A DNA stretch of 64,000 bases from an uncultured bacterium (GTDB taxonomy: Bacteria > Krumholzibacteriota > Krumholzibacteriia > Krumholzibacteriales > Krumholzibacteriaceae). How positions within the stretch are numbered: position 1 is the stretch's first letter; every line of letters starts with the position of its first letter. Made by a program: the position numbers and the translations under genes. Below the pieces are notes generated by a model that made no database searches, was not told where the DNA came from, and worked only from the letters and a program-made list of their open reading frames with translations. Shown here piece after piece: positions 15,088 through 28,259 of this stretch. Location: NCBI GenBank assembly GCA_963813815.1, contig CAWFAD010000008.1:128001-192000 (forward strand), given 5' to 3'.

Positions 15088-18000
15088 TCAGCGCACGCGC
15101 ACGCGATAGACGATGCTCCCGGAAGCGCCGCTCTCGAGCGGATAGGGCGCCTGGCGCGAGAGAAGGACGCTGAGCGTCCCTCCCGCGGCGTCGAACATCG
15201 CCTCGTCCGGGTCGAGGGGATCGGCCGTGAGGTACACGGGCACGCCGTCGCGCAGCCACTCCACGTCGAATCCCGGGCCGAAGGCGTCGAGCACGAGCTC
15301 GACCGCCGGCGGTAGGAGATCGATGATTTCGATCTCTTGCACCGCCTCGACGCCCGGGTTCGCGAACGTGATCGTGTACGTCAATACGTCCCCGGGCCGC
15401 GCCTCGGCGAGATCGACGGATTTGGCGAGGGAGAGTAGCCCGCTCGAGCTCGCGAGCACGAGCACCCGGTCCATGGCCGACGCCTCCGCCGTGATCGCCG
15501 TGCCGGCGAGCGTCTGGGAGAGCGTCACCGTGATCGCGCCGATCGTTCCGGCCGGAGCTTGCGGCGGAACGAACACGCGCATGACGATCGGAACGACGTC
15601 CTTCCCCGGAACGTCCGGATCGAGCGCCAGATCGGCCGCCGTGATGAGCGAATCGCCCGGACCGCACGCTCCGTCGCCGTCGTTGTCCCGATAGAAGGCC
15701 GCGACCCATCCCGGCGGCAGCGTCGCGGAGAGGGTCGCCTGTCCCGCCGTGCCCGCGACAACGAGATGCGGCGCGTCGACGAATCCGCCGGCGACGCAGG
15801 TGAGATCGTTCGACGGCGTGATCGCGGGGCCGCGGACGTCCGCGAAATCGACGCGCAGCGTCTCCCCCGCCGCGGCGGCCGCGATCATGACCGTATCGGG
15901 CGAGAGCGATATCATCCCCGCCGGCGTGAGCTCGACGAGCGTGCGCGGCGTTCCGGAGGCGGCCTCGAAGGAATACGACCCGTCGCCGCCGGTGAGCTGC
16001 GCGAGGGTTCCGTCCGGGCCGGCGAGCGTGACGGAAACGCCCGTCCATCCTTCCTCGCACGCGTCCCGCACGCCGTCGTGATCCCGGTCGTCGAACGCGA
16101 CGCCGGCCACGAAAGCGCCCGTGCCGATCTCGAGCGTGACGCTGTCCTCGAGGTCGCGCGAGAGCGCGATGCCGTCGATGATGATCGGCGTGCGGAGCGC
16201 GGCGAACGCCGGAATGTACACCTTGACGGTGAAGATCCGGACGTCTCCGGGAACGATGACGCCGACGTCGTACGGCGACGAGTGATCCCCCGAGCCGTCG
16301 GAAATGACGACCGATCCGGCCGGCCAGCCCGCCGGGGCGGACCAGGACACCCGGAACGAGTCGGGATATCCGCCGCGATTCCAGAGCTCGAGCGTCGCGG
16401 TCGCCATCGCGCCCGGATCGCCGAAGACGAGCGCCAGGCCGCCGTCGCCCGAGCCGGGCGGCGCCGACACGAAAGCGCCGTCACCCTCGATCACGAGATC
16501 GGCGCGCGGCGGCATGCTCACCTGAACGCGGGCGCATACGCTTTCGCCGTTCGTGGAATCGAGCGTCGACACGGCGTCGATGATATAGTCGTAGTCGCCG
16601 GCGAGGGCCGAGAGCGGCACGCTGACGGTGAAGGCGAGGAGCAGCGCGTCGCCCGGCGCCACGGAGGCCGTCGTGTAGGGCGAAGCCGAGCCTTCGAGCC
16701 TCGCCGTCATGCCCGGGACGGCGTTCCAGGAAACGCGGTAGCTCTCCGCTTCGGCGCCCTCGTTCTGGAGCTCCACGGTAAAGGCGATCGTCCTTCCGGC
16801 GACCGTGCTCTGGAGCGACGAGCCTCCCGCGCCGGTCCCCGGATCGCCGAATATCCCGTCTCCGTACCCGTCGATGAGCCCGTCGACGACGCGCGGCGGC
16901 GTCACGCGGACGCGGCCGAGCACGCTGTCGACGAAATAGCGCTTGTTCGTTTTGCATCCGTCGATGACGACGTCGAACGTGCCGCCCGCGCAATCGGCGG
17001 GAACCGACACGGTCATCGTGTAGGCGCCGGCGGGAACGCGGCGCATCGTGGAGGTCGAATCGCCGATGCGGACGTCCCACCCCGGCGGAGTGTTCCACCA
17101 GACGTCGAAGAGATTCTCGCCCGACTCGTTCTGGATCGTGACGGCGAAGGTGACGGTGCTTCCCGGAGTCGCCGTCTTGACCGACGAGCCGCCGAGGCCG
17201 GTGCCGGGCGAGGCGTACGCGTTGTCGCCGTTCCCGTCGATGAGAATATCGATCTCGTTCCCCGTCGCGACCGAAATCGACGCCTTGACGCTCTCGCGCA
17301 CCGTGCCCGACACCGAGGACAAGAAGTTGAATATCGAGGTAAACGTGTCGTAGGCCCCGTTCAGGGGAATCCCCACGGCGAGGACGCAGGGGCGCTCGCT
17401 CCGCGGCGCCATGGTCGGCGTCCTCCACGGAAGCGCGTACGTCGTTCCGTTGTCGATGATGGAGACCGTCCAGCCGCTTGCCGGCGGGACCCAGGACACG
17501 GTGAAGGAGTCGGCGACCCCGCCCTCGTTCTGGATAACGATCGGGAAATACACGGTCGTTCCGCGCGTGCCCGCGACGGAAACGCTCCCGCCGAGCCCCG
17601 CCCCGGTCGGATCGATGATGCCGTCCCCGCTCCCGCAGATGACGACGTCCACCTTCGGGGCGAGCACGCGCGTCACGGCCCTCACCGCGTCCTTCTTCAA
17701 GGTGTCGGTGAGGGAGGTCGCGCGGACGAGGCTCGTATAGTCGCCTCCGAGGAGCGACGCGGGCACGTACACGCGATAGGAATACGACTCCGAGCCGCCC
17801 GACGGAACGAGCCCCGAGCTGAAGGCGCCCGTCCGGACGATCGCTCCGTCGAGAACGTCAGCCGTGAGCGGCGAGGGCGTGGCCCAGTCGACCCGGAACG
17901 AATCGGCGTTCGCCCCTTCGTTATAGAGCGCGATCGTATAGGCCACCATGGCGTTCGGCGCCGTCTCGCGATACGATATCCCGCCTCCGCCCGAGGGATC

Positions 18001-19050
18001 GATCACGCCGTACCCGTTCGCGTCGATGACGAGATCGGCGAGGTAGTCCGCGGGAACGACGTTCGTCGCGAGGCGCACGCTGTCGTAGCGGTTCGCGTAG
18101 ACGGTCGAGACGGCGTCGACGATGGTCGAGTAGCCGCCGACCGCGGCGCCGGGCGGCACGATCGCGACGACCTCGGCGCTGATCGTGGAGCCCGCCGGGA
18201 CGGCGGGCGTGGTCCACGGAAACGCGTACGTCGCGCCTCCGTACCGGACCGACACGCTCCAGCCGGCGGGGGGCGTCGCGCTGAGGCGATAGGTGTCCGC
18301 GGCCGGCCCCTCGTTCTCGACGTCGAGGAAATACGCTATCGTATCGCCCGCCTCGCCGCTCCGGACCGAGTACCCGCCGCTCCCCGTCCCCGCGGCGCCG
18401 AAGAGATCGTCGCCGTCGCCGTCGACCGCGAGATCGACCCATCGGCGATAGACGAGCGACACGTTGTCGACATAGGACCACGTTTCGTAGGAGTTGTTGA
18501 CGCTGTTCTCCTGAAGAAAGTACAGCCGCACGGTCTGCCCCGCGTAGGCGCTCATATCGTATCCCACGGGCGCCGCGGCGTTGTCGTCGAGCCAGCCCGA
18601 ATCCTTGAAGAGGTTGTTCGCCTCCGAGAAGGAGTAGCTGATGACCGTGGCGAGCACGGCGTTCGCCGTGTTGCGGATCTGCATTCGGAACGGATCGCGG
18701 TTCGAGCCGTCGTACCCCTGCTGGCGGAACGCGAAATAGAGAGTCGCCTGCGAGAAGTTCGTCGGAATCGCGACGTCCTGATAGATGTATCCATAATAGT
18801 TGGCGCGGGGCTGCGCGTACTTGAAGCCGATGAGGGCCGAGTAATCGCCGCTGCGCGGCAGATCGAGCACGACGATATGATCGGCGAAGCTCTGATCGGT
18901 GGAGCCCCCTACGATGCTCCCCGCGCCGTGCACCCACCCGCCCGAGAAGCTGCCCGTCTCGAATCCCCCGTTTTGCACGAGCTCTCCCGCGTTCGCGCGC
19001 GTCGCCGCGATCGCGGCGAGAAGATATATGCCGGCGACAAACCGTCTCAT
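15088..19050 (-). CDS. Large secreted repeat protein: N-terminal CBM-like jelly roll, six ~120-aa Ig-like repeats, SdrD-B-like domain and C-terminal truncated DUF11 domain (putative tip adhesin)
   Basis: Signal peptide; ELVQNGGFETG...W and YVDNVSL; repeats Dxx(I/V)DGxGDxxxxxxGxGxGG; GVAFDDRDHDGVRD.CEEGWTGVSVTL; LSLAKSVD...PGDVLTYTITFANPG......IIDLLP ending SIVYRVRVR. Confidence 0.8.
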   Translation of the reverse strand: MRRFVAGIYLLAAIAATRANAGELVQNGGFETGSFSGGWVHGAGSIVGGSTDQSFADHIVVLDLPRSGDYSALIGFKYAQPRANYYGYIYQDVAIPTNFSQATLYFAFRQQGYDGSNRDPFRMQIRNTANAVLATVISYSFSEANNLFKDSGWLDDNAAAPVGYDMSAYAGQTVRLYFLQENSVNNSYETWSYVDNVSLVYRRWVDLAVDGDGDDLFGAAGTGSGGYSVRSGEAGDTIAYFLDVENEGPAADTYRLSATPPAGWSVSVRYGGATYAFPWTTPAVPAGSTISAEVVAIVPPGAAVGGYSTIVDAVSTVYANRYDSVRLATNVVPADYLADLVIDANGYGVIDPSGGGGISYRETAPNAMVAYTIALYNEGANADSFRVDWATPSPLTADVLDGAIVRTGAFSSGLVPSGGSESYSYRVYVPASLLGGDYTSLVRATSLTDTLKKDAVRAVTRVLAPKVDVVICGSGDGIIDPTGAGLGGSVSVAGTRGTTVYFPIVIQNEGGVADSFTVSWVPPASGWTVSIIDNGTTYALPWRTPTMAPRSERPCVLAVGIPLNGAYDTFTSIFNFLSSVSGTVRESVKASISVATGNEIDILIDGNGDNAYASPGTGLGGSSVKTATPGSTVTFAVTIQNESGENLFDVWWNTPPGWDVRIGDSTSTMRRVPAGAYTMTVSVPADCAGGTFDVVIDGCKTNKRYFVDSVLGRVRVTPPRVVDGLIDGYGDGIFGDPGTGAGGSSLQSTVAGRTIAFTVELQNEGAEAESYRVSWNAVPGMTARLEGSASPYTTASVAPGDALLLAFTVSVPLSALAGDYDYIIDAVSTLDSTNGESVCARVQVSMPPRADLVIEGDGAFVSAPPGSGDGGLALVFGDPGAMATATLELWNRGGYPDSFRVSWSAPAGWPAGSVVISDGSGDHSSPYDVGVIVPGDVRIFTVKVYIPAFAALRTPIIIDGIALSRDLEDSVTLEIGTGAFVAGVAFDDRDHDGVRDACEEGWTGVSVTLAGPDGTLAQLTGGDGSYSFEAASGTPRTLVELTPAGMISLSPDTVMIAAAAAGETLRVDFADVRGPAITPSNDLTCVAGGFVDAPHLVVAGTAGQATLSATLPPGWVAAFYRDNDGDGACGPGDSLITAADLALDPDVPGKDVVPIVMRVFVPPQAPAGTIGAITVTLSQTLAGTAITAEASAMDRVLVLASSSGLLSLAKSVDLAEARPGDVLTYTITFANPGVEAVQEIEIIDLLPPAVELVLDAFGPGFDVEWLRDGVPVYLTADPLDPDEAMFDAAGGTLSVLLSRQAPYPLESGASGSIVYRVRVR

Positions 19051-22000
19051 GGCCGCTCGTTCACCCCCGCCCCGTGAAAGTAGCTCAGGATTTTCTCGTT
19101 GAACTTGAGCCGCATGCCGACGTGAAATCCCCGGCGCGAGTAACAGTTATCGGCCGTGTCCGTGTCCTCGCGCCCTCCGAAATCGTATCCGGCGCCGACC
19201 CACACGTTCCCGGCGACGACCCGTCCGGCCTCCACGCCGCCGCCGTAGCTCGTCGTATGAGTCTCGAGCTGGCTCACGACGCGAGCCGCGAGGCTCACGT
19301 CCCACCGTCCGCCGAACGTCCGTATGACCTGCGTCTGATACAGCACGGCCGACGCGGCGGCGGAGTATTCGCGGAAGGTGTTCTCGACGCGGCGCCCCGC
19401 GATCTTTCCCTCGATCTCCCAGTCGGCCGCCGGCCGCCAGTTCGCCTCGAGGGAGGCGAGGTTCTCGCGATCGATCCCCTCGGGATGCGCGGGGCTTCGC
19501 TCCTCGTAGCTCGAGCGGAGGAGCGAGAGAACCGTGAGCGCGTCGCCGCCGCCCGGCCTGACGGAGACGCCGAGCAGGCCTCCTCCCTTGACGTGATCGG
19601 CCTCGCGCTTCTCGTCGGAGAACCAGAGGTCTCCCCGGAGCAGCACGGCCAAGCGCTCGCCGATGCGCCGGAGCCCGGCGAGCTCGGCGAGATGCTTGCG
19701 GCGATCGGGCTCGAGGCGGAGCTCGTAGCTTCCCTTGAGCCGGTAGTCCCCGGCCGCGGGCGTGTAGGCCGCGTTCGTCGACCAGGAGAAATGATCGTCG
19801 ACCGCCTCGCCGCTCACCGTGGCGACCTTCTCGATCGCGACGACCGCCGAGAGCTCGTCGGAGAGCGCGAGGCGCTCCTTGACGCCGAATATCGCCTGCG
19901 CGCGCTCGCCGCTCATCGCCCCCTCGAGCTGGTACCGCGTGTACGCCTGGAGACGCTCCGATACGTTCGACTCGAGACCGAGCTGCGTGAGATGCCTCGT
20001 GCCGGTATGGCTTCCCGTCCGGTACTCGTGCTTGAGCACGGCCGAGACGCGGCGCCAGAGCCGCTGCGAGAGCTTCGCCTGTATGCGGTTCGGATACTCC
20101 TCGACTTCCTCGCCGTCGAGAATCTGGTCCCACTCGATCGCTCCGGCCGTCCGCTCTCCGCCGAGGCCGAGGCCCGTGCGCAGGAGGACGCTCCGGGCGT
20201 TTCCGTCGCGAGCGTCGTTCCGGGCGGCGGCGGCGAAACCCACCGTGCAATCGAGGCGCCCGGCCGTGTACCGCGCGGTGAGATCGCCGTAGCTCTTTTC
20301 CTCGTCCCGCTCCCGGAGCTCGTGCCGGAAGCCCCGCGCGCCGAGCGCGAGCGTCGGCGCGACCCGCCAACTCGCTTCCGCGCCGAGCTTGCGGCTCCCG
20401 AGCTCCGTCTTGCCGCCCGTGAAGGACGGATTGAAGAACGAGTCGTCGACGTCGCGGTAGTAGGCGCTCCACCGGAGGACGCGATCGCGTTCTCCCGCGA
20501 AGCGAATCCGGAAGGCGCTGCCGCCGCCGAGGACGAACTTGTCGCTGCGCGCGAGCTCGCTCTCGATCCGGACCCCGTCGGCGAGCCGGCCCGCGAGATC
20601 GACGCCGAAGAGCGTCGAATTTTCCACGCCCTCCTCCTCGAGCACCGCGGTCACACCGAAGGCGAGGCTGTCGGCGACCTCGAGCGAGCTGCGGACGCCG
20701 TAGATGAAATTGCGCTCCCCCGCGTCGCGGCATTCGTAGCTCACGACGATGGTCACGGGATCGAGGTTCTCGTCGAACCGGGGAATGGGCTCCTTGAAGA
20801 GAATGCTGCCGTCCTCGTAGTTGATGTCGTAGTCGCGGTTCACCTGCTGGTAATCCACGCGCAGGATCCGCTCGGAGAGGTAGCGGTCGCGAACCTCGAT
20901 GCGCACCTTTTCGCTCCCCTCGACGAGCGGGTAATGCTCGAGAAAATAGAATCCACTCGTTCCCTCGCCGGCGAGCTCTTCCTGATAGGTCGCCTGATCG
21001 GTGTTCGTGACGAACGCCCGGATCGAGCCCTGCGGCAGTCGCGCCTCTCCCGAGAGGCCGTTCATGGAGCGGTGGTATTTCGTGAACTCGGTGCTCGCGA
21101 ACTCCGTCCGAAAATCGCCGAGCATCGCCGAGTACCGGCGGTGATCGAGGCGCGCGAACACGCCGCTGCGGGAGGCGGTGTTGAACCGCAGCTCGCTCGC
21201 GTCGCCGTAGACCGGGTAGTACTTCTCCGGCTCGATGCGGCGGAAGAGCATGTCGTCCCGCACGGGCCGCGTGTTGATCGCCGCGGTGAGAACGTGTCCG
21301 GCGCGCACCTCGCCCTGCCCGTAGAGGGCGACCATCCCCTCGGCGTAGCCCCCGTCCGGATTGCGTTCGAGGGAGCGGTGCGCTCCGCCCGCCCCGCCGA
21401 GCGAGGAGTAGCCGAGCGCCCCCTCGCCGTACCCCATGAGGAACCAGCTTCTCTGCGGGCTCTCGTAGTCCACGCGGCAGGCGGCGGATGCCGTTCCGAG
21501 CGCGACGCGCACGAGCTCGCGCCGCGAGTCGCGCAGCGGGGGGAGCCTGAGCGTCACGCGCCCGCCGGCGGTCGCGGCCTGCACGCCGGCCTGCTGCGGA
21601 TTGACGTCGAGCGAGTCGACGAGATCGGCGGGGCCGGTCACCGCCACAAAAACGCCGTCCCGGACCGGGAGCCCGTTGCGGTCGCTCACGAGGAACACCG
21701 CCTCGGGACGAGAGACGCCGTCCGCCGGCGCCGATACGGTCTCGCGCTCGGCGACGATCGCGTGCGGCCGCCCCGCGAGATACACGTGCCGCACGCAGGT
21801 GCTCCGCCTGCCGCCGTACTCGCGGCACACCACGAGAATGTCGTTCCGGCCCTCCTCGATCTTGACCCCGTAGAAAACGGTGCCGAAGACGCCGGCGGCG
21901 ATGTCGATCTTCTTGAGCCCGATGCGGTCCCGTCCGATCGGAAGGCCGTTCACGTAGAGCTCGACGTCCGAGCCGAGCGGCGAGACGACGTCGACGTCGA

Positions 22001-24827
22001 TCTCTCCGCGGGAGTAGAATACCGCTCCCTCGGCGGGCCGGACGATATCGGCGCACAGGCCCGACGAGTCCGAAAGGGCGTACGTGCTCGTATCGGCGCG
22101 GGCGAGCTCTCCGGCGAGCCCCGGATCGCCGGCCGCCGAGCCGGCTGGGGGCACGACGCGGATCTCGACGCGCCGGTTCATCGCGCGCCCCGCCTCGGTG
22201 GCGTTCGTGGCGACCGGTTCGCGATCGCCTCTCCCCGTGTAGTCCATGCGATCCTCGGGAATGCCGTTCATTCTCAGCACCTGAAACACCGAGCGCGCGC
22301 GGGCGAGCGAGAGCTCGAGGTTCGAGGGGAACCGCGCGCTCGCGATCGGTATGCTGTCCGTGTGTCCCTCGACGAACACCGTCCAGCCCTCGTGCTCGCG
22401 GATCCAGAGCGAGAGGGCGGCGATTCGCGAAAGGGGAACGCCCTCGATCAGGGCCTCCCCCGCGCTGAAATGCGTGCCGGGAATCGTGATGGCGTCGAAG
22501 TCCGGCGTCCGCTGCGACGTGGCCGCGGCTCCCGCGGCGGCCGCCGGGATCGTCTCCGGGGCGTTTTCGGAAGGCCGCGCCGGCGGAGGACCGGCGAGCG
22601 CCGAGTCGGCGGCGGCTCCGGCGGCCGCTCCGCCCGCCGCCCGAACCACCGCGAAATCGACCCGCCGGTGGCCGCTCGGCGCGAGGTCGATGAGCGCTTC
22701 GCCCTTCTCCCCGTAGCCGAAATGGCCCGCGTCCCCGGCCGCGAGCGAGTCGGCGAGGGAGGAGGGATCGAGGCGCACGGCGTGCCGCCCCTCGACGACG
22801 CCCGGGATCGAGTAACGTCCGGCCGCGTCCGTCACGGCGTAGGTGCCGTCTTCGATGAACACGGACGCCCCCGGGACGCCCCGCTCCCCCTCGTCCCACG
22901 CGCCGTCCCGGTCGTCGTCGGCGAAAACGGCCCCCGAGATGACGCCGCGCCGCGTGAAGATTCCCTCGACGATGAGCACCGAGGCGCGCGCGGGGCCGTC
23001 GCTCGCGCGCTCGCCGGCGCTCGTCACGCAGTGCGCCCACGCGCTTCCCGTGAGCCTTCCCGTCTCCTGCCCCGAACCCACGCGGGCGCGGAAAACGATT
23101 TCCCGCTTCTCCCCCGGCGCGAGCGAGCCGAGGCTCCACGAGAGGGCGCCGCCGTCGATCGCGGGCGCCATGCTGCCGGTCGCGTACTCGAGACCGGCGC
23201 ACAGACGCTCGACGACCTCGACGCTGTCGAGCGTCGTTTCGTCCGCGACGTTCTCGACCGTCACGATGAAGCTGACGACGTCGCCGACCATGGCGACCGG
23301 CTCGCGGATCGACTGCGAGACGGAAACGAGAGGAATGAACGACTTGAGCAGAACGTCCTCGACCCGGTCGCTCGAGCCCGCGACCGAGAGGGAGGCGGCC
23401 TCGAGATCGAAAACGAGCTCCCTCCCGTCGAAGAGCCGGAATCCCTCCGGAGTCGATTCGAGCCGCAGCCCGACGACGACGGAGGCGCCGCGCGGAACGA
23501 CGCCGGCGAAGGCCCGATACCGCGAGAGGCTCTCGAGCGGCGCGCCGGTCGAATCGACGAACGCGATCCCCCATTCGGGGGGAATCGCCGCCGAATCGGC
23601 CACGGCCACCGAGATGCTGTCGTCGAAATTGCCGCCGTTCAGAATCTCGTGCCAGAGAACGTAGGAGCCGTCGGTGCCGTTGAGCGCCGCGACCACGCGG
23701 TCGGCGGGGGTTTCCGCCGGCGCGTCGGGGTCGCCGCGCGGGCCGATGGCGACGAGGCTCACGCGGCCCACGAGTACGAGGACCTCGTTCGAGACGGCCT
23801 CGCGGTCGGCGCCGGCACCGTCGAGATACGCGCACGACGCCCGGTCGAGAATCCATCCCTCGGGGTGATCGTCCCGCACCCGCGTCCGGTACGAGAAGGC
23901 GCCCGACTCTCCCGCCGAAAGGCTGTCGAGAAGGAGGCGCACGCCCTTCACGCGCTCGGCCGGAGGCTCCGTGGAGGTCCAGACGGATGCCGCCGCGTCG
24001 AAAAATTCGATCCGCCCGCCGAGGGACGAAGCGGCGGATCCCGCGGCGAACTCCGCGCCCGTCAGCACGCCGCCGTCGTCGATTCGCGACTCCAGCGCGA
24101 CGAGCGTCGCGGCCCGCTCTCCCGAATTCTCGAAGTCGATCGCGAAGCCGATCGTATCGCCCGGCAGCGCCGCCGCGGCGTCCGCCGAGAGCGAAAGGGC
24201 GACCGAGGCTTCCGCCCGCGCCGTGACGCGCACGACGTTGCCGCGATCGTACAATGATGTGTCCTCCGACGATCGCGCGACGAGATCGATGTGCGCCGTC
24301 TCTCCTCCGGCGAGGCCCGGCGGCAGAACCGCCTCGAGCAGCAGGAAAACCGATTCGCCCGGATCGAGCGGTCCCACGCTCGTGACCTCGGGCTCTCCCG
24401 CGTCGAGTGCCCCGTCTCCGTCGGCGTCGATGTACACGGCCGTCCGCGCCGGGACGAAGCTCGACGGTGCGGGATACGCGATCGCGAGCGCGAAGGCGTC
24501 CTCGACGTTCCCCGCGTTTTCCAGCCGGAACGGGAAGCGCACCGTCTCCCCAGTGAAGGCGAGCGCCGTCGCCGCGGGACTCGAAACGGTTCCGTCGGGG
24601 GTCAAGAGGGGGCCGTAAGCGGCGAGAACGCTCACGAAAACGGTGTTCGAAAAGATCGAGAGCCGCGCTCCATCGCGGTCGTAAACCGCCTCCGACCGGC
24701 TCGAGATGACCTGTCCGGCCGGCGGAGCTTGGCCGCGGACGAGCGAAGGAAACAGGGCGAGCCCCGCAACCACAAGCAAGAAAAGGGCTTGCCCCCTTCT
24801 CGATCGTATGGCCAACGGTCCGCTCAC
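19047..24827 (-). CDS. Very large DUF11/SdrD-B/OmpA-domain protein with C-terminal outer-membrane beta-barrel (putative anchor/usher)
   Basis: GTG after GGAGG; signal peptide; two DUF11-like domains; GAVFADDDRDGAWDEGERGVPGA; OmpA motifs VEGHTDS, NLELSLARA, NATEAGRAMNRRVEI; long amphipathic beta-strand region ending GFHVGMRLKF. Its stop overlaps the next start (ATGA). Confidence 0.85.
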   Translation of the reverse strand: MSGPLAIRSRRGQALFLLVVAGLALFPSLVRGQAPPAGQVISSRSEAVYDRDGARLSIFSNTVFVSVLAAYGPLLTPDGTVSSPAATALAFTGETVRFPFRLENAGNVEDAFALAIAYPAPSSFVPARTAVYIDADGDGALDAGEPEVTSVGPLDPGESVFLLLEAVLPPGLAGGETAHIDLVARSSEDTSLYDRGNVVRVTARAEASVALSLSADAAAALPGDTIGFAIDFENSGERAATLVALESRIDDGGVLTGAEFAAGSAASSLGGRIEFFDAAASVWTSTEPPAERVKGVRLLLDSLSAGESGAFSYRTRVRDDHPEGWILDRASCAYLDGAGADREAVSNEVLVLVGRVSLVAIGPRGDPDAPAETPADRVVAALNGTDGSYVLWHEILNGGNFDDSISVAVADSAAIPPEWGIAFVDSTGAPLESLSRYRAFAGVVPRGASVVVGLRLESTPEGFRLFDGRELVFDLEAASLSVAGSSDRVEDVLLKSFIPLVSVSQSIREPVAMVGDVVSFIVTVENVADETTLDSVEVVERLCAGLEYATGSMAPAIDGGALSWSLGSLAPGEKREIVFRARVGSGQETGRLTGSAWAHCVTSAGERASDGPARASVLIVEGIFTRRGVISGAVFADDDRDGAWDEGERGVPGASVFIEDGTYAVTDAAGRYSIPGVVEGRHAVRLDPSSLADSLAAGDAGHFGYGEKGEALIDLAPSGHRRVDFAVVRAAGGAAAGAAADSALAGPPPARPSENAPETIPAAAAGAAATSQRTPDFDAITIPGTHFSAGEALIEGVPLSRIAALSLWIREHEGWTVFVEGHTDSIPIASARFPSNLELSLARARSVFQVLRMNGIPEDRMDYTGRGDREPVATNATEAGRAMNRRVEIRVVPPAGSAAGDPGLAGELARADTSTYALSDSSGLCADIVRPAEGAVFYSRGEIDVDVVSPLGSDVELYVNGLPIGRDRIGLKKIDIAAGVFGTVFYGVKIEEGRNDILVVCREYGGRRSTCVRHVYLAGRPHAIVAERETVSAPADGVSRPEAVFLVSDRNGLPVRDGVFVAVTGPADLVDSLDVNPQQAGVQAATAGGRVTLRLPPLRDSRRELVRVALGTASAACRVDYESPQRSWFLMGYGEGALGYSSLGGAGGAHRSLERNPDGGYAEGMVALYGQGEVRAGHVLTAAINTRPVRDDMLFRRIEPEKYYPVYGDASELRFNTASRSGVFARLDHRRYSAMLGDFRTEFASTEFTKYHRSMNGLSGEARLPQGSIRAFVTNTDQATYQEELAGEGTSGFYFLEHYPLVEGSEKVRIEVRDRYLSERILRVDYQQVNRDYDINYEDGSILFKEPIPRFDENLDPVTIVVSYECRDAGERNFIYGVRSSLEVADSLAFGVTAVLEEEGVENSTLFGVDLAGRLADGVRIESELARSDKFVLGGGSAFRIRFAGERDRVLRWSAYYRDVDDSFFNPSFTGGKTELGSRKLGAEASWRVAPTLALGARGFRHELRERDEEKSYGDLTARYTAGRLDCTVGFAAAARNDARDGNARSVLLRTGLGLGGERTAGAIEWDQILDGEEVEEYPNRIQAKLSQRLWRRVSAVLKHEYRTGSHTGTRHLTQLGLESNVSERLQAYTRYQLEGAMSGERAQAIFGVKERLALSDELSAVVAIEKVATVSGEAVDDHFSWSTNAAYTPAAGDYRLKGSYELRLEPDRRKHLAELAGLRRIGERLAVLLRGDLWFSDEKREADHVKGGGLLGVSVRPGGGDALTVLSLLRSSYEERSPAHPEGIDRENLASLEANWRPAADWEIEGKIAGRRVENTFREYSAAASAVLYQTQVIRTFGGRWDVSLAARVVSQLETHTTSYGGGVEAGRVVAGNVWVGAGYDFGGREDTDTADNCYSRRGFHVGMRLKFNEKILSYFHGAGVNERP

Positions 24828-24972
24828 ACTGTTTCCTCCAGAAACGAAACGAGAGGTTGGCCCTTTCTCGGAAGCCAACCTCCAGTTCGGCGTTTTCACG
24901 CCCGATACGCTGGATGGTGCCGACTCATCGCTGCTCGCTTCTCGCTATCCTACCGCCCGTTTCTTGAAAGTC

Positions 24973-25002
24973 GTTGCGGGGCGCCTTTCGGCGCCCCGCA
25001 AC
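24973..25002 (-). terminator. Strong intercistronic stem-loop after the major DUF11 subunit gene (mRNA stabiliser or partial terminator)
   Basis: On the minus strand GTTGCGGGGCGCC-GAAA-GGCGCCCCGCAAC: 13-bp perfect stem with a GNRA loop, 12 nt after the stop, and no strong U-tract. Confidence 0.7.
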
Positions 25003-25014
25003 TCGCCGCGCCGA

Positions 25015-27711
25015 TTATTCCGCTATGATGCGAACGATAAAGGCCGCGCCGTCGGCCGTGCCCGCGCCGCCGGCGAGGGATCCCGCGAGCACCCAGCGAA
25101 CGTTCGTCACGCTCGCGTCGAAGCCCGCCGGAGCGCCGCCGCCGCCGCTCACGGGTGTGTAGGCCCACGTGGCGCCACCGTCATCCGAGAACTCGATCGT
25201 GATGCCCGTGATGCCCGGGGCGAGCGTTCCCGTGACGGCCGAGCCGACCCGGTACTGCGTCCACGCCGGGATCGCGTCATAGATTTCGATCGCCGCGAGA
25301 TCGGCGGTGCCCACGTTCGAGTAGTCGGTCCGGTAGGTGAGCTCCGTTCCCGGAAGCTGCGAACCCGACGGATTGACGGATTTCACGAGAACGAGATTGC
25401 CGGCGACGATCGTCGTGACGTCCGTCGCCGTGTCGGTCGCGCCGGTCGCCTGGCCCGTCGCGCTGATCGTCCCCGTCTCGACCGTGCCGAGCGGCACGCC
25501 CGACGGAATCGAGAGCTGGACGATGACGTTCGTCGAAGCGCCCGGGGCGAGCGTGACGGCCGCGATCGGGTTGTTCGCGAGATCGAAGTACGCGTACGAC
25601 CAGCCGTTCGAGCTCACCGCCGCGAACAGGAACGTGTCGCCGACGTTGCCGGTGTTCGTCACGGCGTGCTGGTAGCGCACCGTTCCGCCGCTCGTGCCGG
25701 TGCCGGCGCGATCGGGGTCGATGGTGACGGAGGCCGCCTGCAGAATCGTGACGGTGTCGGCGATCTCGTCGAAGACGGAGCCGTTATTGGCCGAGGTCGC
25801 CCGGAAGGTCACGGGATTGACGCCGGGAACGGCGCCGAGCGGCACGGCGACGCGCGCTATGACGTTCACCTCGTTGCCGCCCGCGATGGGGCCCACGCCC
25901 GTGATCGGGGTGAGCTCCGGCAGGTCGAGAAGGCCGTTGGCGTTCACGTCGAAATAGTACGTGGCGACCCAGCCCGCGGGAACGGAAGCGGAGAGGTTGA
26001 AGTTGTCGGTCGAGCCGCCCGTGTTGATCACGTCGAGCGCGAAGTCGACGTTCACGCCCGGATTGGCGTTCTGGTTGACCGCGACGTTGTTCGTGCCGGG
26101 AACGCCGTCGTAGTTGCCGATGTCGACCGAGGCCGGCGCGACGAGCGCGATCCGGTCGGTCGTGATGTTCGACTCGGCGGGATCGTTCGCCGAGACGGCC
26201 TGGATGACGGCGTCATACGGACCGCCGGCGCCGGCCGTGCCCGGGATGATGATCCGCACGATGAAATCGCGCGTGTCGCCGGGGTTGAGCGTTCCCACGT
26301 CGGGAATGCCGTCCGTGCCCGTGTCGCCGAGCGGCGTGACGCCGTCGCTGCGGAAGAAGAGCACGCTCCAGCCGGCGGGGATCGTCGAAGCGCCGTCGAG
26401 GACGATGTTGATCTCGTCGGCCGCGTTGCCGTCGTTCCGCACGGTGTTCGTGAAGGAGACGGTCGAGTTGGCGTACGCGAGCGGAATCGACTGCACGTCG
26501 TCGGCGTAGTTCGGCGGCGTGCCGGCGGCCGGCTGGCCGACGGGACCGACGAGCACGTCGGCGAGAACGTTCACGTTGATCTGCGTGTTGTTCGTCGGAA
26601 CGATCGTCGGATCGGGAGAACCGGGGTTGTTGTCCGTGAACGCGACGGCGCCGCTGTTGTTGATGATGCCGGCGCGCATCGTGACCGGAACGACGAGATC
26701 GTAGCCGAAGCTGTAGTTCTGTCCGACCGGGAGCGCGCCGTTCGTGAGATACGCCACGGCGATATCCCCGGCGCCCGCGATCGCGGACCATGCCCACGTC
26801 TCGGGCGAACCCGCCATCGGGCTTCCGGCGGGCAGGTACAACACCGATCCGCCCGCGGGGGCTCCGGCGGGGGCGCCGGAGAGCGCGAGCGGAAGACCCG
26901 TCGTCGGGTCGGTCGGCAGGGCGTCGTACATGAGGACGCCCGTGAGGCCGACGGAGGGAACGGTGACGCCGTTCGCGGGCTGGGTGCCCACGTTGGCGCC
27001 CGTGATCGTGTAGGTGATGACGTTGCCCGGATCGACGTTCGCGGGCACGCCCGACATCACGGCGGTGAGCACGGCGTCGCTCACGACGTCCGTCAGATGG
27101 TAGTTCCGTGTGTCGATGCGGGTCGGATCGCCCGCGGAGGCGCCCTCAACGCCGACGTAGGCGACCTCGCCGACGAGCGAGCCGGGAGGCACCTGATAGG
27201 TGACGAGGATGCCGACCGTCGTTCCCGCGGCGATCGGTCCGAGGTTGCCCGGAACGCCGCCCGAGGAAATCGCCGGTTCGCCGCCGTCGAGAACGCCGTT
27301 GCCGTTCGCGTCATAGTAGATCGTGATGTCGCCGAGCCCGAGCGTCATCGTCGTGTTGGCGGCGTCGAGCAGCGGCTCGATCGAGTATATGTCGGCGTCG
27401 TTGCCGGTGTTCGTGAGGCTGTAGCTGTAGTAAACGGTCTGCCCCGGTATGGCGGTCTGCGTCAGAGCCGGCGTCACGGGCGGGGTCTCGCCCGAATCGT
27501 CCGGAAGGATCGACAGCCCGTACACGGGGAGCACGATCGTCGTGACCTCGTTCGAGGTCGCGGTGTACGTGTTGCCCGAGAGGTCCTGGAACCTCGCCGA
27601 GGCTTGGTTCCGGATCGTCGTGCCGGCGGGGGTCTGCGCCTGCGCCGCCGAAACGACGCAGAGCACGACCGCCAGCATGGCGACGCCGGAGAATAGACGC
27701 GCCTTGAACAT
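25015..27711 (-). CDS. Secreted DUF11/Ig-repeat protein, putative major fimbrial (shaft) subunit
   Basis: GAAGGAG RBS; signal MFKARLF...AQA/Q; mature N-terminus QTPAGTTIRNQASARF; several (T/I)N(T/D)GNxxDx(F/Y/I) Ig repeats with D.NGNG.LD loops; C-terminal LVLVKSV..PG.ELTY...YSNVG......IYDAIP ending FIVRIIAE. Very Thr/Gly/Val/Ala rich. Confidence 0.85.
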   Translation of the reverse strand: MFKARLFSGVAMLAVVLCVVSAAQAQTPAGTTIRNQASARFQDLSGNTYTATSNEVTTIVLPVYGLSILPDDSGETPPVTPALTQTAIPGQTVYYSYSLTNTGNDADIYSIEPLLDAANTTMTLGLGDITIYYDANGNGVLDGGEPAISSGGVPGNLGPIAAGTTVGILVTYQVPPGSLVGEVAYVGVEGASAGDPTRIDTRNYHLTDVVSDAVLTAVMSGVPANVDPGNVITYTITGANVGTQPANGVTVPSVGLTGVLMYDALPTDPTTGLPLALSGAPAGAPAGGSVLYLPAGSPMAGSPETWAWSAIAGAGDIAVAYLTNGALPVGQNYSFGYDLVVPVTMRAGIINNSGAVAFTDNNPGSPDPTIVPTNNTQINVNVLADVLVGPVGQPAAGTPPNYADDVQSIPLAYANSTVSFTNTVRNDGNAADEINIVLDGASTIPAGWSVLFFRSDGVTPLGDTGTDGIPDVGTLNPGDTRDFIVRIIIPGTAGAGGPYDAVIQAVSANDPAESNITTDRIALVAPASVDIGNYDGVPGTNNVAVNQNANPGVNVDFALDVINTGGSTDNFNLSASVPAGWVATYYFDVNANGLLDLPELTPITGVGPIAGGNEVNVIARVAVPLGAVPGVNPVTFRATSANNGSVFDEIADTVTILQAASVTIDPDRAGTGTSGGTVRYQHAVTNTGNVGDTFLFAAVSSNGWSYAYFDLANNPIAAVTLAPGASTNVIVQLSIPSGVPLGTVETGTISATGQATGATDTATDVTTIVAGNLVLVKSVNPSGSQLPGTELTYRTDYSNVGTADLAAIEIYDAIPAWTQYRVGSAVTGTLAPGITGITIEFSDDGGATWAYTPVSGGGGAPAGFDASVTNVRWVLAGSLAGGAGTADGAAFIVRIIAE

Positions 27712-27767: not shown

Positions 27768-28259
27768 TTACTTCACCTGCACGCGATAGGAGACCGAAAC
27801 TTCCTTGCCGACCTCGAGAACGCTCGAGATGTCCCACATGATGTGCGTATACATATCGGGTGTCGCGACGCGCGGCTCCTCGATGCCCCGTTCGTTTACG
27901 ACGTTGTAGCGAACGGGAGCTTCGTGGAACGACTTGCCGCCGTCGATGCTGTAGCTGGTCTTCGCGGCGCCGCTCTCGGTCGCGGTCTTCTCCAGGTACT
28001 CGGTCCCCGCGGGGATCGGCCCCACGAGGCTCACCCCGGAGGCCGGAGCGTCGCCGACGTTGCGGTAGCGCAGCGTGTACTCGAGACGGTCGCTCGGAAA
28101 GACCTTCTCCGCGGAAACCGCGGTCTCGCGGTTTTCCGCGTCAACGACGATCTTCCGGGCTTCCATCGTGCCGGCGAGGGTCGGCCCCTTGCCGTACGCT
28201 GATGCGGAGAGCGATGCGACGATGAGGAAAATGGTCGCAACGACGAAACTCGCTCTCAT
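27768..28259 (-). CDS. Small secreted single DUF11-like domain protein (163 aa)
   Basis: RBS GGAGGGAGAGGG; signal peptide; VFPSDRLEYTLRYRNVG..PASGVSLVGPIPAGTEY; YSIDGGKSF; ends VSYRVQVK. Confidence 0.85.
   Translation of the reverse strand: MRASFVVATIFLIVASLSASAYGKGPTLAGTMEARKIVVDAENRETAVSAEKVFPSDRLEYTLRYRNVGDAPASGVSLVGPIPAGTEYLEKTATESGAAKTSYSIDGGKSFHEAPVRYNVVNERGIEEPRVATPDMYTHIMWDISSVLEVGKEVSVSYRVQVK

Follow-up and report, generated by a model that had tools for sequence, protein, structure and literature searches.

A split CLIPPER domain at the two ends of a predicted surface-fibre subunit from an uncultured Krumholzibacteriaceae bacterium

The stretch of DNA analysed here, referred to as the window, comprises 64,000 nucleotides (positions 128,001 to 192,000, forward strand, of contig CAWFAD010000008.1, assembly GCA_963813815.1) from an uncultured bacterium assigned to the Krumholzibacteriaceae. 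Gene B is the second of four minus-strand genes, A to D, forming the only such locus of the source genome. The protein it encodes is probably the shaft subunit of a surface fibre, assembled head to tail and locked by spontaneous Lys777-Asn35 isopeptide bonds. This reading starts from the layout of the chain which, according to the AlphaFold2 model and the profiles, consists of a signal peptide, a donor hairpin, a first immunoglobulin-like (Ig) domain, a complete CLIPPER domain, Ig domains three to five and a truncated CLIPPER acceptor. The features of gene B are as follows.

25015..27711, minus strand: gene B, a single open reading frame encoding a predicted secreted shaft subunit of 898 amino acids.
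27637..27711, minus strand: Sec-type signal peptide, residues 1-25, ending in AQA (read by eye).
27526..27636, minus strand: donor beta-hairpin, residues 26-62, equivalent to the final two CLIPPER strands (hhalign and model).
27607..27609, minus strand: Asn35 (IRNQA), predicted isopeptide acceptor residue, equivalent to Asn352 (alignment and interface list).
27550..27552, minus strand: Asn54 (TSNEV), a second conserved Asn read as structural (kept in the homologues P0244 and P0245).
26557..27084, minus strand: complete internal CLIPPER/DUF11 (CnaA-like) domain, residues 210-385 (modelled separately).
27055..27057, minus strand: Met219 (LTAVMSG) at the internal Lys site; its ATG codon is a single base from AAG (Lys).
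25018..25404, minus strand: C-terminal acceptor, residues 770-898, a CLIPPER domain minus its final two strands (hhalign and Pfam).
25381..25383, minus strand: Lys777 (LVLVKSV), by alignment.
25276..25278, minus strand: Asp812 (IYDAIP), predicted catalytic acid (alignment and model).

The start of gene B is preceded by AAGGAG and, in the alignment of close homologues, conservation begins at Q26, right after the predicted signal peptide. A previous reading of this DNA, made from the letters alone (the sequence-only reading), had assigned Asn35, Lys777, Asp812 and Met219 to the codons listed above, and the 898-residue translation bears this out. Gene B contains two lysines, Lys3 in the signal peptide and Lys777; the 873 residues of the mature chain hold Lys777 alone, located precisely on the Lys column of the CLIPPER domain. 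The internal domain retains Asp263 and Asn352, and the related locus L003 carries AAG (Lys) at codon 219. Lys, Asp and Asn are not found together inside one continuous CLIPPER domain of gene B, the internal copy having Met219 and the Asn-bearing strand of the terminal copy being at the other end of the chain. The mature chain was modelled with AlphaFold2 using a 115-row alignment. The model is all-beta, displaying a hairpin and six Ig-like domains, with a mean predicted local distance difference test (pLDDT) of 89.8 and a predicted template modelling score (pTM) of 0.63. The four domains other than the CLIPPER copies are mutually related by profile alignment and devoid of Lys. An Asn35 donor at the N-terminus had been correctly proposed, although as a single strand, where the model displays two, spanning residues ~32-60. 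At the C-terminus, which ends in the acceptor strand without a hydrophobic tail, no LPxTG motif with a membrane anchor was found.

The two ends of the chain were compared with the internal domain using hhalign. The C-terminal domain corresponds to internal-domain positions 5-136 (probability 99.1) and the N-terminal hairpin to positions 140-176 (probability 90.6), in a register that equates Lys777 with Met219, Asp812 with Asp263 and Asn35 with Asn352. Since the halves map end to end on the internal domain, contiguous and without overlap, the gene B chain ends where it starts within one domain. Family searches identified DUF7507 of Pfam at residues 772-835 (40.2 bits for a cut-off of 27) and TIGR01451 of NCBIfam (39.6 bits for a cut-off of 24); the DUF11 match to gene B reached 18.2 bits, below its cut-off of 24.6. 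The internal domain folded by itself (pLDDT 95.2) was aligned to the structures 9IFR, BcpA, SpaD and 7WRK with VIA-align. It matches the CLIPPER structure 9IFR with a Z score of 11.8 and a root-mean-square deviation of 2.1 over 122 aligned residues (Foldseek TM score 0.70, normalized by target length), and the CnaA domains of the pilins BcpA (Z 13.4, deviation 2.5, 139 residues) and SpaD (Z 12.2). The Asp812 column meets the Asp of the LNDTL motif of 9IFR in a weak profile match (E-value 0.37). In 9IFR, Lys715 is joined to Asn806, with Asp748 nearby (PMC12617251).

The assembly of the two halves was modelled as a complex of residues 660-898 and 26-211. This complex scored 0.88, the best of three controls scoring 0.11; the score mark applied is reached by 116 of 157 solved pairs and by 2 of 215 mismatched pairs, counts that are only roughly valid when the run uses an alignment of its own. 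The different runs share at least 80% of their contacts, with a partner pLDDT of at least 91. In the model, the Lys777 strand is flanked by the second strand of the hairpin and the IYDAIP strand by the first. The interface list includes Asn35, Lys777, Asp812 and the invariant Tyr793, and the listed contact pairs include L775-A37, K777-N54/V56 and I810/Y811-A37/S38. Judging from the strand register, Asn35 would be in register with Lys777 and Asp812. The docking model joins the profile alignment in favour of a Lys, Asp and Asn triad split across the predicted junction, as the sequence-only reading had it. The Protein Data Bank was searched by sequence with the gene B protein alone, without any match, and with its C-terminal domain, which retrieved only Asp-box look-alikes (E-value 0.09 or worse). 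A Foldseek search with the full-length model returned only generic multi-Ig chains (query-length TM score of 0.23 or less) and no solved fibre of the split type, although one may exist.

Conservation was evaluated at two depths. The close set consists of the best 120 of 601 hits (from 8000 scored candidates), query included, at 62-100% identity. Lys777 and Asp812 are present in all 120 rows and Asn35 in 119, with one gap, which is the outcome that the sequence-only reading had proposed to look for among homologues. Invariant columns are frequent in this set: 159 of 869 overall, with 19 of the 60 Asn columns and 20 of the 57 Asp columns among them. The invariance of Asn35 and Asp812 is therefore by itself a weak argument, and it is the single invariant Lys that carries weight. 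Column 219, by contrast with Lys777, holds Met in 78 rows, Leu in 29 and Lys in 13, and a full internal triad is found in 13 of the 120 rows, distributed in three separate groups. At least four changes between Lys and another residue are required at site 219 within the close clade, where Lys777 never changes. The tree reads as one loss and three regains, but it is poorly supported at its deep nodes and is also compatible with repeated loss, all the more since L003 has Lys in the internal domains of both the shaft (gene B) and the anchor (gene C, see below).

The distant set was built from 150 representatives at 50% clustering, of which 95 of 780-1200 amino acids were aligned; 28 were then dropped blind to the triad columns, leaving 67, and the removal of one non-orthologue left 66. 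Both triads are present in 49 of these orthologues, the junction triad only in 9, the internal triad only in 3 and neither in 5, giving a junction triad in 58 of 66. Position 777 is Lys in 59 of 66. Independent losses amount to 6 clades for Lys777 and 8 for Lys219, or 7 (junction) and 10 (internal) for whole triads. In the distant shaft homologues P0244 and P0245, the Lys and Asn of both the junction and the internal domain are lost, and P0245 has no Lys after residue 30; these two proteins may represent natural non-covalent versions. Asn54, which neighbours Lys777 in the complex model, was considered as the reactive residue and rejected since its position is in the last strand and it is retained where Lys777 and Asn35 are lost. 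This rejection is weakened by the fact that the joint loss of Asn35 and Lys777 is limited to one clade, while P0229 loses Asn35 alone.

The remainder of the operon supplies candidate partners for both ends of gene B. Its features are listed below.

27768..28259, minus strand: gene A, a secreted acceptor-only domain of 163 amino acids, with Lys36 in register with Lys777 and Gly80 at the catalytic Asp column.
24973..25002, minus strand: a G+C-rich RNA hairpin of 13 perfect bp, immediately following the gene B stop (region z -3.99).
19047..24827, minus strand: gene C, a giant protein; the reading frame is open from 24899, with a likely GTG start at 24827.
15088..19050, minus strand: gene D, 1320 amino acids, candidate tip.
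15421..15423 and 15319..15321, minus strand: Lys1210 and Asp1244 of the truncated C-terminal CLIPPER acceptor of gene D.

A donor hairpin was not found at the N-terminus of gene D by the internal-domain profile. Gene C combines an N-terminal donor hairpin, two Lys-less DUF11 domains, an SdrD_B domain and an OmpA domain. Its hairpin has Ser67 at the Asn site (codon 24701-24699) and its DUF11 sites are occupied by Leu237, Ser271 and Asp352 in one domain and by Gln529 in the other. The reactive residues of gene C are lost in the window and in most close loci; Nevskia and L023 keep them. The C-terminal part resembles outer-membrane proteins among language-model look-alikes and displays 16 amphipathic segments, compared to 7.6 +/- 2.4 in shuffled sequences by a crude count, and gene C would probably end in an outer-membrane barrel. 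The best 25 of the 40 NCBIfam matches to gene C are all of the OmpA/MotB type. Gene A is a candidate cap or chaperone. Among 18 aligned gene A proteins, out of the 25 scored for downstream folding (see below), the first-strand Lys is present in 15 and the catalytic Asp in 4, the two occurring together in 4 (L018, L023, L027 and L029); depending on the lineage, gene A may thus act either as a covalent terminator or as a reversible cap. TTHA1873 (7WRK), whose Z score to the internal domain is 10.9, was considered as a solved homologue of gene A and set aside, as the gene A profile gave no match to it. In the genome of the window, complete triads are predicted only at the B-B and B-D junctions.

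The order A-B-C recurs wherever the contig reaches among 29 loci from GTDB genomes. These loci are labelled Krumholzibacteriota, Latescibacterota, Polaromonas, Nevskia, Brevirhabdus (L024 being the cultured Brevirhabdus pacifica DSM 27767) and Marinimicrobiota, and include Pseudomonadota; close relatives are labelled Krumholzibacteriota or Latescibacterota. Language-model look-alikes belong mostly to Deinococcota and Pseudomonadota clusters and are taken as a lead only. Three loci (L023, L027 and L029) encode four-domain shafts of 539-560 amino acids in which both terminal halves are kept. In the same three loci the giant is split into two genes, with a separate barrel/OmpA part. Two of them, L023 and L027, also have, upstream of A, a gene that ends in an acceptor. 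Two loci titled Micrarchaeota (L004) and Patescibacteria (L014) have a gene B 76% identical to that of the window although their bins carry the labels of unrelated phyla, and are probably misbinned contigs. Shorter pilins carrying both donor and acceptor were also considered: one protein out of 117 has a donor hairpin (P0285, 237 amino acids), an anchor-type signal and hairpin joined to a shaft-type acceptor. It was set aside as looking fused or misassembled, through either a deletion or an assembly artefact.

The folding z is at or below -2 downstream of the gene B stop in 20 of 27 loci, compared with 3 of 25 downstream of gene A (approximate shuffle). The hairpin following B likely raises the A-B message over C-D, and its higher frequency after B than after A is consistent with B being the abundant subunit, the role of major pilin that the sequence-only reading had given it. 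A second terminator-like hairpin is located between B and C (24852-24883, minus strand), just upstream of the likely ribosome site of C.

The mechanism we favour can be summarized as follows. Gene B would be exported by Sec in a bacterium bearing an outer membrane, and its signal peptide cleaved. The hairpin of one subunit would complete the truncated C-terminal domain of the next, burying Asn35 beside Lys777 and Asp812, and the Lys777-Asn35 isopeptide bond would form spontaneously, assisted by Asp812 and without sortase, locking the junction. The distal hairpin of the fibre would enter the reactive acceptor of the tip D as a covalent cap; the basal B acceptor would take the hairpin of gene C, whose Ser in place of the Asn would keep this contact non-covalent in this lineage. 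Gene A, with its Lys and without the catalytic Asp, would be a probable exchangeable cap shielding free hairpins. The internal bond would be dispensable in this lineage and the junction bond kept. The main argument for assembly in trans comes from the orphan halves, an acceptor with Lys and Asp in D and a donor in C, which need partners on other chains. A conserved operon whose tip carries only an acceptor and whose outer-membrane giant carries only a donor likewise favours a head-to-tail fibre.

A number of observations weigh against this mechanism and are considered here with the alternatives. Both docked fragments originate from one protein, and the complex model makes no distinction between cis and trans. 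The good score of the complex is also expected for the halves of one domain resembling solved CnaA structures, and the pair K777-N35 is absent from the 25 contact pairs listed for it. The monomer model places the hairpin confidently (pLDDT 77-91), the only low stretch being the linker before the acceptor, with strain restricted to residues 768-772. These features are compatible with an intramolecular closure, in which the hairpin would complete the C-terminal domain of its own chain and yield a six-domain covalent ring or a closed monomer. Structure predictors, however, often close head-to-tail polymers into rings, the halves carried by D and C are unpaired, and the four-domain shafts keep the same two ends, which makes a ring less likely; on balance we regard this closure as unlikely.

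We give a similarly low probability to a complementation between subunits that stays non-covalent, with Lys, Asp and Asn retained for a role in packing or in a buried polar network. In its favour, gene A mostly keeps its Lys without Asp, so that a conserved Lys alone proves no chemistry, and the donor of gene C is devoid of Asn in this clade. The junction triad is absent from 8 of the 66 distant orthologues, five of which have neither triad, and the N35A mutant of BsaA still forms oligomers stable in sodium dodecyl sulphate (PMC11580942). On the other hand, the junction Lys is invariant in a protein without any other mature Lys, a bond between these columns is established in 9IFR (PMC12617251), and Asn35 and Lys777 were lost together in the clade of P0244 and P0245. 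The outer-membrane base of the proposed fibre is also open to criticism, the barrel of gene C being read from language-model look-alikes and a crude strand count. Least probable of the three is a fixed D-B-C chain, a fibrillar adhesin made from separate genes in which one or a few copies of B would serve as stalk segments: the operon does encode every junction partner, but B with both halves could in principle repeat, and strong hairpins after its stop in most loci are as expected for an excess subunit.

Whether intramolecular bonds are actively selected against, for instance because early internal cross-linking hinders export, is a separate question. The sequence-only reading had found reactive residues at the junction only and deduced a selection for intermolecular rather than intramolecular bonding. 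The first part is valid for this lineage, where reactive residues are lost at internal sites of both shaft and anchor, but not for the 13 close rows with a full internal triad. The second part is not supported as a rule: both triads are found in 49 of the 66 distant orthologues, the usual state being therefore both bonds, and the loss counts are similar (6 and 8 clades). Counter-selection could be argued from the absence of the internal Lys in 107 of 120 close rows, from the loss of the reactive residues in the two DUF11 domains and donor of the anchor in the window and most close loci, and from the excess of junction-only over internal-only orthologues (9 and 3). It is nevertheless unlikely in view of the three separate groups retaining the internal triad and of the Lys present in the internal domains of both shaft and anchor in L003. 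The repeated changes at site 219 and the retained internal triads fit a relaxed selection on the internal bond. A fair reading of these alignments would be that the junction is the more strongly constrained, with an internal bond relaxed or dispensable in this lineage and no selection against internal bonds.

Two additional motifs were recorded. An Asp-box (S-x-D-G-G-x-T/S-W/F) is found in the acceptor domains of B (residues 842-849, 25162-25188, minus strand) and of A (residues 104-111) and is the source of weak sialidase matches. Loops of the DxNxNGxxD type occur in B (134-142 and 588-596), C (158-166 and 661-669) and D (988-996 and 1122-1130) and are likely calcium sites. The gene B family profile weakly matches AbpX over domain 3, which is not a junction domain (E-value 3e-4); together with the loops, this match suggests a calcium stiffening of the fibre.

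Covalent pili are textbook knowledge for Gram-positive bacteria, in which they are assembled by sortase, and spontaneous covalent linkage was recently shown in a TasA-type fibre and in archaeal threads. If the proposed mechanism holds, an enzyme-free covalent fibre in outer-membrane bacteria would add another way of building strong surface filaments, and a widespread operon whose only annotation is that of DUF11 repeat proteins would gain a function. The contribution of the window is the comparison of internal and junction triads. This lineage offers a clean test case, as the sole Lys of the subunit is at the junction and any Lys-based cross-link could be assigned at once; the natural Met and Lys variants at site 219 allow asking what the internal bond adds. 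The natural CnaA split could also seed a new ligation pair, although a long tag and a catcher minus two strands may be less handy.

Among known systems, the CLIPPER/DUF11 (PF01345) and CLIPPER_2/DUF7507 domains share the CnaA-like fold of the internal domain of gene B, with Lys in the first strand, Asp some 35 residues further and Asn near the domain end. The known examples are whole domains of single-chain adhesins forming intramolecular bonds, whereas gene B splits one copy between its chain ends; Lys-less DUF11 domains have already been noted, and no split domain is described in the main-text sections on the domain and its bond (PMC12617251). The chemistry is closest to that of BsaA of Clostridium perfringens, a member of the TasA family assembled by exchange-and-lock with Asn35 on the donor, Lys74 and Glu56 (PMC11580942). 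The same residue layout is found in gene B (Asn35 on the donor, Lys777 and Asp812 on the acceptor), where a spontaneous intermolecular Asn-Lys bond without sortase is likewise predicted, with Asn on an N-terminal donor and both Lys and the acid on the acceptor. BsaA differs as a small TasA-type subunit with a single donor strand, a Glu catalyst and a SipW operon, mostly in Gram-positive bacteria (PMC11580942); gene B has 898 amino acids, six domains, a two-strand hairpin, Asp, a CnaA fold and a giant OmpA/outer-membrane partner. No TasA-type subunit with SipW was found at the operon, the Pfam and NCBIfam matches listed for its four proteins including neither TasA nor signal-peptidase families.

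In chaperone-usher pili (FimA/PapA, FimH, FimC, FimD), an incomplete Ig fold is made complete by the neighbour's N-terminal extension (PMC13721041), and tip, shaft, cap and outer-membrane protein are similarly encoded in one operon, the complementation being, for gene B, a modelled one and its trans geometry a putative one. Their linkage is non-covalent with one donor strand (PMC13721041), in contrast to the two-strand hairpin of B, and Pfam at E-values up to 0.1 gave no match of the four operon proteins to an usher (PapC/FimD) or a PapD-type chaperone family. The archaeal threads of Saci_0406 are donor-strand polymers with intermolecular amide links, but in these the N-terminal amine is linked to an Asn in subunit n+2 and no Lys is involved (PMC9715654). 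AbpX is a donor-strand polymer as well, but calcium-driven and non-covalent (10.64898/2026.01.04.697558); A-ENA provides another spontaneous intermolecular link (PMC13111695). Three other fibres were rejected as matches: TLP-1 fibrils, made of single-domain protomers with a single strand and no mention of isopeptides in the accessible text (PMC11494351); Tafi, which is archaeal, with no isopeptide or covalent bond mentioned in the part available (PMC11821415); and GhlA of Litorilinea, a single chain of 49 DUF11 domains whose accessible text mentions neither donor nor isopeptide (10.1101/2025.08.19.671072). No description of a split CLIPPER fibre in diderms turned up in the literature searched, most subscription papers being outside its reach.

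The sequence-only reading had likened the junction to a natural SpyTag/SpyCatcher pair, of potential use in protein ligation. SpyTag belongs to the CnaB class and has a reactive Asp. The comparison stands as regards a split isopeptide domain but is otherwise loose, as gene B has an Asn hairpin in a CnaA-type fold, chemically nearer to DogTag. In SpyTag/SpyCatcher and DogTag/DogCatcher, a split Ig-like domain reconstitutes and forms an isopeptide, DogTag being itself an Asn-bearing hairpin (PMC10288437). Those pairs were engineered by splitting adhesin domains of Gram-positive origin (RrgA D4, Glu-assisted), with tags of 12-23 residues (PMC10288437), whereas in gene B a CnaA-type domain is split by nature, the tag has about 35 residues and the reactivity is putative. 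It is in our opinion an even bet that the operon represents an undescribed pilus class of several diderm phyla, with a naturally split CnaA-type domain self-locking by isopeptide, a disabled-acceptor cap and an OmpA-barrel platform, and that it holds in addition a new Tag/Catcher pair orthogonal to Spy, Snoop and Dog. From the comparisons above, the novelty would reside in the split CLIPPER fibre of diderms, the chemistry having a precedent in BsaA of Clostridium.

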